Translations under genes and position numbers: made by a program | Shown: positions 5,969 through 7,203 of the stretch, piece after piece | How the letters are laid out: each line of letters begins with the position of its first letter | How positions within the stretch are numbered: position 1 is the stretch's first letter | The notes under the pieces: model-generated | The model's input: only the letters and a program-made list of their open reading frames with translations | Told to the model about the DNA's origin: nothing | Databases searched by the model: none | Virus record (IMG/VR): IMGVR_UViG_2802429251_000007 | Coordinates: 1-30,664 of that record | Origin: a virus | Taxonomy: Duplodnaviria > Heunggongvirae > Uroviricota > Caudoviricetes | Direction: 5' to 3' (one strand) | DNA: 30,664 nt

Positions 5969-6361
5969 ATGTCTGAACCCTTATCTGGTTCCGGCACGGC
6001 TGCGGCGCTCGGCGGGGCGACGGTATTCGGGCTGTTTACCGGAACGGATTTCGGGATTGTGTTTGGTGCGTTCGCCGGGGCGTTATTTGTGGCAACGATG
6101 CCGCAGGCGCTTTCAGTCTGGCGTGTGGTGGCGCATTTTTTGGTGTCGTTTATCGTCGGCGTGCTGGGGGCGCGCGTGCTGTCAGCCTGGATTGCATCAA
6201 AAACAGGGTATGACGGTACATCGGCAGATGCGCTGTGTGCGGTGCTGGTATCGGTGGTGTCGGTGAAGATTCTGTCGTTCATCCACCAGCAGGATATTGC
6301 ATCGCTGGTGTCCGGTGTGTTCTCCCGCCTGCGGGGCGGAGGTGGCGGCAATGTTAAGTAA
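5969..6361 (+). CDS. putative holin (131 aa, multi-TM, Gly-rich)
   Basis: ATG 5969 with AGGAG 8 nt upstream (ORF-track start 5918 is an extension); several hydrophobic segments; first gene of lysis cassette. Confidence 0.5.
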   Translation: MSEPLSGSGTAAALGGATVFGLFTGTDFGIVFGAFAGALFVATMPQALSVWRVVAHFLVSFIVGVLGARVLSAWIASKTGYDGTSADALCAVLVSVVSVKILSFIHQQDIASLVSGVFSRLRGGGGGNVK

Positions 6362-6626
6362 CCTTCCCGGATTGCTGAATGTGGCGTTATGCACGGTTAT
6401 CGTGCTGACGCTCTTTTTTTATCGTCGTCGCGATTCCAGACATAAGCCGCTGATGTCATGGCTGGCCTGGCTGCTGATGCTGCTGTATGCCTTTGCACCA
6501 CTCAGCTATCTGTGCGGTCGCCCGTTAGCGGCGAACTGGCTGGCGGTGGGGCTTAATCTGCTGTTCTGCGTGCTGGTGATACGTGCACGCGGGAACGTTT
6601 CAAAAATCCTTTCATTCCGGAGGTGA
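6351..6626 (+). CDS. second lysis-cassette membrane protein (holin/antiholin-like), 91 aa
   Basis: ATG 6351 with GGAGG upstream; hydrophobic helices; overlaps holin end by 11 nt. Confidence 0.4.
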   Translation: MLSNLPGLLNVALCTVIVLTLFFYRRRDSRHKPLMSWLAWLLMLLYAFAPLSYLCGRPLAANWLAVGLNLLFCVLVIRARGNVSKILSFRR

Positions 6627-6628
6627 GC

Positions 6629-7006
6629 ATGTCGGGTAAATTCAGATTCAGTCGTCGCAGTGAAAAAAATCTGGAGGGCGTTAAACCACAGCTGGTTGCT
6701 GTCGTTCGCCGTGCGCTGGAGCTGACGGAGGTTGATTTCGGTATTACGGAAGGGCTGCGCACGAAAGAACGCCAGAAACAGCTGGTCGCGGAAGGGAAAA
6801 GCCAGACCATGAACAGCCGCCACCTGACCGGTGATGCGGTGGATGTTGTTGCCTACATTGGCAGCCAGGTGTCATGGGACTGGCCTCTGTACGAGAAAAT
6901 CGCGCAGGCATTTAAGCAGGCTGCCGCAGAGCTGGGAACTGCCATCGAATGGGGCGGGGACTGGAAAACACTGAAAGACGGACCTCACTTTCAGTTGAAA
7001 CGCTGA
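6629..7006 (+). CDS. endolysin, peptidase M15-type (zinc L-alanyl-D-glutamate peptidase-like)
   Basis: SRHLTGDAVDV and GPHFQL resemble M15 endolysin His/Asp metal ligands; ATG 6629 with GGAGG 5 nt upstream. Confidence 0.75.
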   Translation: MSGKFRFSRRSEKNLEGVKPQLVAVVRRALELTEVDFGITEGLRTKERQKQLVAEGKSQTMNSRHLTGDAVDVVAYIGSQVSWDWPLYEKIAQAFKQAAAELGTAIEWGGDWKTLKDGPHFQLKR

Positions 7007-7020
7007 TAACCAGGTGTGTT

Positions 7021-7203
7021 ATGAGCCGAAAACACTGGACACACAGAATGCCGCGAACGGCGGCGAAATGGGCACTGGTAGCGATACTGGTGCCTTTTTT
7101 ATTGGTGGGGTGCGTCAGCCTGGATAAGGCGCGCCAACTTTTAGATACAGCTTCTCAGGTCTGCAAAATTGTCGACAGTGTTCGGCAGTGTATGCAGAAC
7201 TGA
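7021..7203 (+). CDS. small lipoprotein (60 aa), possible o-spanin/Rz1-like
   Basis: Signal peptide with lipobox LLVGC; position directly after endolysin; no cognate i-spanin ORF seen. Confidence 0.4.
   Translation: MSRKHWTHRMPRTAAKWALVAILVPFLLVGCVSLDKARQLLDTASQVCKIVDSVRQCMQN

Follow-up and report, generated by a model that had tools for sequence, protein, structure and literature searches.

A small lipoprotein in the spanin slot of a phiP27-like lysis cassette without a recognisable i-spanin gene

The lysis cassette and its last gene

The subject of this study is the lysis cassette of a tailed phage (Caudoviricetes) contained in a stretch of 30,664 nucleotides (positions 1 to 30,664 of the IMG/VR virus record IMGVR_UViG_2802429251_000007; hereafter, the window), and in particular the gene for a 60-amino-acid (aa) lipoprotein that closes it. 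Within positions 5969 to 7203, four open reading frames (ORFs) are packed tightly and all run in the same direction (Table 1). They code for two holin-type membrane proteins, an M15-type endolysin and the lipoprotein, and they lie where an initial annotation, made from the letters alone, had placed a four-gene lysis cassette, with family matches that agree with it. The genes overlap or abut, a Q-like gene, tRNAs and tandem terminators precede them and the terminase follows, and the holin families stand directly 5′ of a muralytic enzyme that lacks a signal, the late-operon arrangement expected of a holin-endolysin cassette. These genes make up the complete lysis cassette in the late operon of a phiP27-like temperate phage.

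The product of the first gene showed three to four hydrophobic segments in a hydropathy scan; its reading as holin-like was upheld by the family matches, and the length of 131 first given for it counts the stop codon. The second gene starts 11 nucleotides (nt) before the end of the first, as had been noted, and its product has three transmembrane (TM) segments by hydropathy, with a charge distribution that suggests an N-out/C-in, class-I-like topology. The metal-binding residues previously seen in the endolysin were located at H65-x-D69/D72 and H120, and phmmer comparisons gave E values of 1e-43 to 1e-44 against the solved L-Ala-D-Glu endopeptidases 8q2g and ChiX 5opz, and of 3e-24 against the T5 endolysin 2mxz. 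The hydropathy scan found no TM segment, signal or signal-arrest-release (SAR) sequence in the endolysin, which is predicted to be a cytoplasmic (canonical) M15 zinc L-alanyl-D-glutamate endopeptidase and would therefore need a hole-forming holin.

The lipoprotein precursor consists of the signal peptide MSRKHWTHRMPRTAAKWALVAILVPFLLVG followed by the mature part CVSLDKARQLLDTASQVCKIVDSVRQCMQN, joined at the lipobox LLVG/C31. The mature part of about 30 residues with three cysteines is as initially annotated, with the qualification that the count includes the acylated Cys31. The protein ends in ...VRQCMQN, and its only hydrophobic segment is the signal peptide; there is no C-terminal TM segment, in agreement with the earlier view that it is not a unimolecular spanin. 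Lipoproteins with a residue other than Asp at +2 are sorted to the outer membrane, and the Val found at this position implies that this one would be sorted there as well. The mature part is strongly amphipathic (hydrophobic moment, muH, of 0.5 to 0.6) with a net charge of -2 to +3. AlphaFold2 returned one continuous helix over residues 12 to 59, at low confidence (pLDDT 64), and the mature part is accordingly drawn here as a single predicted amphipathic helix.

Gene callers commonly start this gene at 6949, which would give an 84-aa form. We rejected this start, as the extension is not hydrophobic and is confined to the compact M15 arrangement, and a Shine-Dalgarno-like motif precedes the ATG at 7021. 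The second ATG, at 7048, is also disfavoured as the start because residues 1 to 9 are kept while their codons vary synonymously. Among the 90 copies in the loci fetched at that stage, 82 had the 60-codon frame intact, with 46 distinct alleles. Over these alleles, pN/pS was 0.22 overall, with values of 0.19 for the n-region, 0.22 for the h-region and 0.21 for the mature part, so that the whole 60-codon frame, residues 1 to 9 included, appears to be under purifying selection. The ORF is evidently a real gene and not a chance frame.

The h-region codons of the gene contain a terminator-like hairpin (-19 kcal/mol, z of -3.1 versus shuffles), and 99% of the synonymous recodings of this peptide are less stable. 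In codons 18 to 31, synonymous diversity (pS) was half that of the rest of the gene. In an alignment of 27 alleles, 94% of the cells were paired, and three pairs showed compensatory changes, a result reached by 24 of 500 shuffles; the hairpin was absent from the Mu-like member L107. It appears to show signs of selection, which complicates the reading of h-region conservation, and it could serve as a stop, past the endolysin gene, for transcripts that are not antiterminated.

Table 1. Positions of the cassette genes and neighbouring features in the window, and of two membrane proteins encoded at related loci
Feature	Position	Strand	Description
Holin 1	5969-6361	+	130 aa; PF16931 Phage_holin_8 E 1e-22; phrog_198 holin E 3e-42
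Holin 2 (or holin partner/antiholin)	6351-6626	+	91 aa; PF05449 Phage_holin_3_7 E 2e-21; phrog_217 E 3e-37
Endolysin	6629-7006	+	125 aa from ATG; Peptidase_M15_4 E 2e-12; phrog_465 E 1e-75
Shine-Dalgarno-like AGGTG	7012-7016	+	4 nt before the lipoprotein ATG
Lipoprotein	7021-7203	+	60 aa, phrog_7528; ATG 14 nt past the endolysin stop
Signal peptide, residues 1-30	7021-7110	+	unusually long basic n-region MSRKHWTHRMPRTAAKW; h-region ALVAILVPFLLVG
Mature lipoprotein	7111-7203 including stop	+	acylated Cys31 and 29 residues; Cys48, Cys57 (C-x8-C); no proline
Terminator-like hairpin	7070-7101	+	11-bp stem, GCGA loop, then T-run; in h-region codons (17-28)
Q-like gene	2579-3385		DUF1133 / Phage_antitermQ
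IS1	3675 to ~4442		perfect left inverted repeat 3675-3697; InsB-type transposase ORF 3924-4427
tRNA-Thr	5355-5430		
tRNA-Gly	5434-5508		
Three tandem terminator-like hairpins with T-runs	5779-5798, 5819-5836, 5928-5943	+	leader just 5′ of holin 1
Terminase subunits	7755-8504 and 8362-9873		downstream of the cassette
57/60-aa protein, C-terminal TM (phrog_4493/1115)	e.g., L002 4507-4680; L086 3662-3844		related loci
44-aa protein, N-terminal TM (phrog_4906)	e.g., L086 3862-3996		related loci

Family, linkage and ancestry of the lipoprotein

The lipoprotein matched phrog_7528, a family annotated as of "unknown function", over its full length (residues 1 to 60 of 60, E 2e-37), and had no match to a Pfam (E ≤ 1), NCBIfam or PADLOC family. 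Among 5.8 billion proteins searched, the homologues formed 150 clusters at 90% identity, essentially all "hypothetical" and all from Enterobacterales hosts (Escherichia, Salmonella, Citrobacter, Yersinia and Cronobacter). A profile search of 1.84 billion representatives at 50% identity gave 22 clusters, all of them recognisably lipoproteins of the phrog_7528 type, with no bridge to another family. Across 27 diverse members, G30, C31 and the two further cysteines are invariant down to 38% identity, with the spacing C-x8-C in all members except for one subgroup with C-x9-C. Also kept are the long basic n-region and an h-region ending ...LVPFLLVGC, and the mature part is always proline-free, with 26 to 33 residues (41 in P0126). 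PGAP annotations of complete E. coli genomes either omit the gene or give it as "hypothetical protein".

The linkage of the gene to the lysis module is tight. The order Phage_holin_8, Phage_holin_3_7, endolysin, lipoprotein was found in 77 of the 77 IMG/VR loci with intact upstream sequence, out of 80 loci in total, and 40 of the 80 have exactly the layout of the window. Of the three exceptions, two end at a contig edge and one has a Mu-like prophage in the endolysin gene (in L048, a Mu-like transposable prophage with a 668-aa MuA-type transposase occupies positions 246 to 3659, within a GH108 endolysin gene). In the other loci, a GH108 muramidase replaces the M15 enzyme, or short inserts separate the endolysin from the lipoprotein; in Yersinia (L083/L084), in L087 and in the Mu-like L106, the GH108 gene shares 4 nt with the start of the lipoprotein gene. 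Divergent members (38 to 63% identity) follow immediately on the endolysin in cassettes whose holin is Phage_holin_3_1, of the lambda-S type, the enzyme being of the M15 type in L095 and L098 and a GH108 muramidase in L104 and L108. The lipoprotein was found on lambdoid, Mu-like, siphovirus and myovirus backbones, next to four types of terminase (Terminase_3, Terminase_4/TerL, Terminase_6 and Terminase_2) and to varying tail modules (siphovirus tail genes, sheath or Mu portal). What is conserved is thus the unit of holin(s), endolysin and lipoprotein, with the first two parts exchangeable, a linkage that should be expected of a lysis gene and not of a receptor-masking or cargo gene.

In more distant cassettes with the same two holin families, canonical spanins are found directly after the endolysin. 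This spanin slot holds a phrog_1026 Rz-like gene and an overlapping lipoprotein in mEp390, gp38/gp39 (annotated as a membrane protein and an outer-membrane spanin, o-spanin) in Klebsiella phage Seifer, canonical spanins in Salmonella phage F1055 and a 130-aa Rz with an overlapped 114-aa Rz1 in Salmonella phage 118970_sal3. The Rz1 of 118970_sal3, SfII, SfV and their relatives, a family to which the o-spanin of Mu also belongs, begins MQNSRSHWSHREPRKISKW...LLTGC, and the lipoprotein of the window begins MSRKHWTHRMPRTAAKW...LLVGC. The similarity of the signal peptide to SfII Rz1 was picked up unprompted by tblastn; in BLASTP, 19 of 36 residues were identical (pairwise E 2e-9), and the family profile aligned to Rz1 with an hhalign probability of 96% (E 2e-9) over residues 2 to 36 only. 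No similarity between the two mature domains was detectable past residue 36 by hhalign. A relationship of the mature domain to the C terminus of Rz was tried and rejected (hhalign 0.4%), and among PDB chains it found designed helical repeats only.

The signal peptide is evidently homologous to those of the SfV/SfII/Mu-type Rz1 o-spanins (SfII_54, 118970_sal3 Rz1 and Mu gp23a). Shared with them are the place of an outer membrane lipoprotein at the 3′ end of the cassette, the basic n-region pattern SR.HW.HR.PR...KW and a periplasmic cysteine, and in 118970_sal3 Rz1 is accompanied by the same pair of holins. Unlike them, the lipoprotein of the window has no Rz around or beside its gene, and its mature part has 30 aa instead of about 75, is predicted to be all-helical and contains no proline. 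The simplest history would be that an overlapped SfV/Mu-type Rz/Rz1 pair lost Rz and that the Rz1 ectodomain, of about 75 aa and with proline, was replaced by a short helix with the C-x8-C pair, the Rz1 signal peptide and lipobox being kept.

The cassette was present in 373 of 5,426 complete E. coli genomes (about 7%) and in the deposited phage genomes phiP27 and phiSTEC1575-Stx2k, and phiP27 is both inducible and infectious. One phage, GER2, has a lambda-type S-R-Rz cassette together with a decayed copy of the lipoprotein gene carrying four in-frame stops, a natural control that fits a functional replacement of spanins by the lipoprotein. No copy of the gene is present in the LT-II prophages Rac-SA53 and SerU-LTIIb. 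A recent study of Stx2e phages (PLoS Pathog 2025) covers the holins and not the lipoprotein gene.

Search for an inner membrane partner and surroundings of the cassette

As initially annotated, no inner-membrane spanin (i-spanin) ORF was evident, and this was borne out in every frame of positions 6600 to 7300, in the rest of the window and in about 100 related loci; an overlapping Rz-like ORF was sought in all frames and not found. The only other open frame over the lipoprotein gene, at 7014 to 7127 (-1 frame; L32 in phiP27), was rejected as an embedded Rz: it has no TM segment and no conserved start, and stops interrupt it in several alleles. The RefSeq record of phiP27 annotates this wrong frame (L32) over the lipoprotein gene. 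A six-frame scan of the 30.6-kb window, with one N-terminal TM segment followed by at least 20 further residues as the criterion, found no ORF with an N-terminal TM and a periplasmic domain near the cassette; it returned the lipoprotein itself, a Hok/Gef-type toxin (1308 to 1490), a 241-aa lipoprotein of the baseplate module and obvious shadow ORFs. Likewise, the Rz proteins of lambda, of the SfV/Mu type and of the mEp390 type had no tblastn match in the window or in any locus with an intact lipoprotein gene.

A scan of the complete phiP27 genome found no i-spanin-like ORF besides the 64-aa ORF called in SpaninDB. This database lists PhiP27 as a "separated" two-component spanin in which both components are singletons, with a combined periplasmic length of 62 residues, the shortest of 528 spanin systems (Kongari et al. 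2018, PMC6139136). Its o-spanin (20706 to 20861) is the orthologue of the lipoprotein of the window, called from the second ATG (51 aa) and described with a 30-aa, 83% helical periplasmic part (PMC6139136); the start appears to be 9 codons too short. Whereas the listed components are singletons, the lipoprotein family described here has 150 clusters at 90% and 22 at 50% identity. The i-spanin is a TTG-initiated ORF at 20348 to 20542 (PMC6139136). We found this ORF (L001 4264-4458) in phiP27 only, with no PHROG match and antisense to a 90-aa ORF that matches phrog_36812 (E 5e-19), and the insert that carries it is missing in the window and in almost every other locus; the call is probably a mis-call. 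Both this ORF and phiP27 L31 were rejected as partners, as they lie within the phiP27-specific insert. In a survey of Stx phages, an Rz pham was found in 277 of 279, and the two exceptions were stx2e phages of the phiP27-type cluster C, with a metallopeptidase endolysin (Pinto et al., PMC8136144). As for the formal marks of an o-spanin, the lipoprotein has the lipobox and a non-Asp +2 residue and lacks a cognate i-spanin gene; a conserved periplasmic cysteine occurs in 507 of 528 spanin systems (PMC6139136).

Small membrane proteins (phrog_4493/1115 and phrog_4906; Table 1) are encoded directly 5′ of the lipoprotein in 41 of about 100 related loci (about 40%) and are absent from the window. 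Both were rejected as i-spanins, given this absence and the fact that they have almost no periplasmic part. By analogy, they may be accessory factors acting at the level of the holins, and Lcc6 of the Shewanella phage LambdaSo is a comparable factor (bioRxiv 10.1101/2024.01.23.576932).

The surroundings of the cassette are those of a late operon. The leader with the three tandem hairpins, in a scanned region with 12 terminator-like sites against 3.6 expected, is typical of a Q-antiterminated late transcript, from which a role in antitermination is inferred, and in phiP27 and the Stx2k phage the toxin genes occupy the corresponding place. The IS1 copy sits between the Q-like gene and an ORF6N/KilA-N-type gene (4509 to 4991) and may uncouple late transcription in the window's own prophage. 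The gap between the cassette and the small terminase subunit is filled by a KTSC-domain gene (7330 to 7542, - strand), which convergently overlaps a 70-aa ORF matching phrog_18255 (7485 to 7697, + strand), and is the same cargo hotspot that holds the LT-II toxin genes in Rac-SA53 and SerU-LTIIb. Myovirus tail genes follow further downstream of the terminase. In the baseplate module, two + strand ORFs without PHROG match (22944 to 23669 and 23735 to 24487), the first of them the predicted 241-aa lipoprotein (lipobox LTSC), lie between the hub gene (21877 to 22941) and the wedge genes and may be a cargo or defence insert in the tail operon. The Hok/Gef-family membrane toxin ORF (+ strand) is found in the early-right region and matches phrog_251, "MokW-like host killing" (E 2e-31).

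Completion of lysis and the competing explanations

The lipoprotein resembles several known systems in part. Like the unimolecular spanin gp11 of T1, it is a single product with a lipoprotein signal that occupies the place of Rz/Rz1 at the end of the cassette; gp11 has a C-terminal TM segment and a long beta-rich periplasmic domain, and the lipoprotein has neither. Gp28 of phiKT, a small amphipathic helical peptide that replaces spanins in a spanin-less coliphage, is a disruptin (bioRxiv 10.1101/515445) and offers both a similar amphipathic helix and a precedent for a non-fusogenic route. It is cationic and carries no lipid, unlike the lipoprotein, which is near neutral, lipid anchored and endowed with two conserved cysteines. 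Colicin lysis proteins (bacteriocin release proteins [BRPs], PF02402) permeabilise the envelope (quasi-lysis), and their stable signal peptide has a role. They too are made as prolipoproteins of 45 to 60 aa that give an acylated peptide of about 30 aa, with a lipobox of the LLVGC type, but they have no further cysteines, are not helical, are plasmid-borne and SOS-regulated and lie outside holin-endolysin cassettes. Identity with a colicin lysis protein was rejected (no Pfam match at E ≤ 1; hhalign 19% for the ColE1 lysis protein, over the lipobox only), as was identity with Lpp (PF04728; no Pfam match; hhalign 68%, signal and lipobox only; C terminus Asn, not Lys). An a/d heptad register counted by eye from the acylated Cys (positions 7, 10, 14, 17, 21, 24 and 28) recalls Lpp and is generic to coiled coils.

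The reading that we prefer, with a probability of roughly 0.4, is that this o-spanin-derived lipoprotein completes lysis without a phage i-spanin. The Phage_holin_8 and Phage_holin_3_7 proteins would, by their families, permeabilise the inner membrane, and the M15 L-Ala-D-Glu endopeptidase released from the cytoplasm would cleave the stem peptides of murein. After export, acylation at Cys31 and cleavage by signal peptidase II, the product of the 60-aa prolipoprotein would reach the inner leaflet of the outer membrane, where its 29-residue amphipathic and disulfide-capable helix would perform the outer membrane step with no phage partner in the inner membrane. We assign this step to the lipoprotein because of its position, linkage, ancestry and selection. 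Our guess is that disulfide-linked oligomers of the lipid-anchored helix would destabilise the outer membrane locally, with lethal effect once the murein is gone, much as a phiKT disruptin carrying a lipid, or a lipopeptide of the colicin lysis protein kind, might do. The initial annotation had proposed either a non-canonical outer membrane route or some other role for the lipoprotein; the linkage to the endolysin, the Rz1 ancestry and the GER2 pseudogene favour a lysis role in the spanin slot, and the other role is disfavoured.

It is possible, and we hold this more tentatively, that the lipoprotein is a self-sufficient disruptor of the outer membrane, that is, a spanin reduced to one 60-codon gene. 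As a speculation, slow processing through the conserved signal peptide would let an inner-membrane-anchored precursor coexist with the outer-membrane-anchored mature form, and their helices might then pair antiparallel, with Cys48-Cys57′ and Cys57-Cys48′ bonds giving a disulfide-locked bridge (reasoned, not computed). Alternatively, the lipid-anchored amphipathic helix might destabilise the inner leaflet or activate OmpLA, as colicin lysis proteins do.

Several points weigh against a lysis role without a phage i-spanin. Position and conservation place the gene in the cassette but do not demonstrate an activity. In lambda, Rz1 alone is inactive, and a solo derivative of an o-spanin would therefore have to work by some new mechanism. 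Unlike the phiKT disruptin, the helix is not cationic (net -2 to +3), its AlphaFold2 model is of low confidence (pLDDT 64), and in sequence the lipoprotein does not resemble colicin lysis proteins, Lpp or entericidins. Because phages can do without spanins in some laboratory settings, one that has only a weak factor, or none, could survive. The phrog_4493/1115 protein could be a partner that was lost from the variant in the window, and the window's own prophage may not be lysis-proficient, given the IS1 that separates its Q-like gene from the late genes.

The lipoprotein might instead be a true o-spanin with an unrecognised inner membrane partner, the complex bridging and fusing the membranes like Rz-Rz1, the partner being a host protein that spans the inner membrane and periplasm, a holin or the 57/60-aa tail-anchored protein. 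We consider this unlikely, in spite of the Rz1-homologous signal peptide, the spanin slot, the conserved periplasmic cysteines and the listing of the phiP27 orthologue as an o-spanin in SpaninDB. The i-spanin paired with it there is limited to phiP27, without PHROG match and antisense to the phrog_36812 ORF. The membrane proteins of phrog_4493/1115 do abut the gene in 41 of about 100 loci, and i-spanins of other topologies are explicitly allowed by Kongari et al. (PMC6139136), but neither the window nor the Yersinia loci nor any Phage_holin_3_1 cassette encodes the small membrane proteins, whose basic N termini point to an N-in, tail-anchored topology with hardly anything exposed in the periplasm. 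A holin cannot be the specific partner because the holins change between cassettes, and a 29-residue helix (about 4 nm) cannot span the periplasm.

Two further explanations take the gene out of lysis. It could be a late accessory "moron" coding for an outer membrane lipoprotein that serves superinfection exclusion, receptor masking against debris or host fitness. Llp of T5 and Cor are small disulfide-containing phage lipoproteins with exclusion functions, and receptor masking protects the progeny from debris; beside these precedents stand the annotation of the function as unknown everywhere and the insertion hotspot between endolysin and terminase, which holds LT-II toxin genes, a KTSC gene and other cargo in related phages. 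We find a moron improbable, as the gene has no promoter to itself but lies 0 to 18 nt from the endolysin gene or overlaps it by 4 nt, an Rz1 gene is the source of its 5′ end, PADLOC gave no match, and in intact phages the variable cargo lies before or after the lipoprotein gene and never in its place. It also stays with the lysis module while the tail, receptor-binding and packaging modules change, and masking is disfavoured because a masking protein should co-vary with the tail. Least probable of all is that the gene is what remains of a decayed Rz/Rz1 pair and now has hardly any function, or none, its conservation being owed partly to the internal hairpin or terminator. The 5′ end would then be a relic of the overlapped Rz1, and the stable hairpin in codons 17 to 28, where synonymous diversity is halved, and the absence of the gene from Rac-SA53 and SerU-LTIIb would follow naturally. 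But the mature part, outside the hairpin, is under equally strong purifying selection (pN/pS 0.21), the lipobox and both cysteines are invariant to 38% identity across genera, and 82 of 90 copies have kept an intact ORF, against four in-frame stops in the redundant GER2 copy. The two LT-II prophages are poor evidence of viability because they carry deletions in packaging genes (one annotation reads "fusion of two genes by deletion"). Cargo and relic are thus both disfavoured by the linkage pattern together with the purifying selection on the mature part.

Disruption of the outer membrane is the least understood step of phage lysis, and to our knowledge the phiKT disruptin is so far the sole alternative route to have been offered. 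In about 13% of the phages that infect Gram-negative bacteria, no spanin can be recognised (PMC6139136). What was known of the present case is that one database lists the phiP27 copy as a putative o-spanin; our comparison indicates a sizeable family without i-spanin. It corrects the database record as well, since the SpaninDB i-spanin of phiP27 looks spurious and the o-spanin start too short, and it gives a place to a gene that automated pipelines leave unannotated or as "hypothetical protein". The family provides a widespread and genetically tractable E. coli case, in which an acylated predicted helix of 30 residues, apparently derived from an o-spanin, occupies the spanin slot with no partner gene, and it makes the opening of the outer membrane by spanin-less coliphages directly testable with the standard tools of lambda complementation. 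Should a host partner be needed, this would be a new way of building spanins. If the lipoprotein acts alone, it would be a minimal outer-membrane-breaking lipopeptide, of relevance for lysis biology, for the release of the Stx2e and Stx2k toxins and for the design of envelope-active agents. A self-sufficient lipoprotein would represent a further class of outer membrane lysis beside two-component spanins, unimolecular spanins (u-spanins) and disruptins, one that about 7% of complete E. coli genomes, and Stx2e- and Stx2k-converting phages, would carry.

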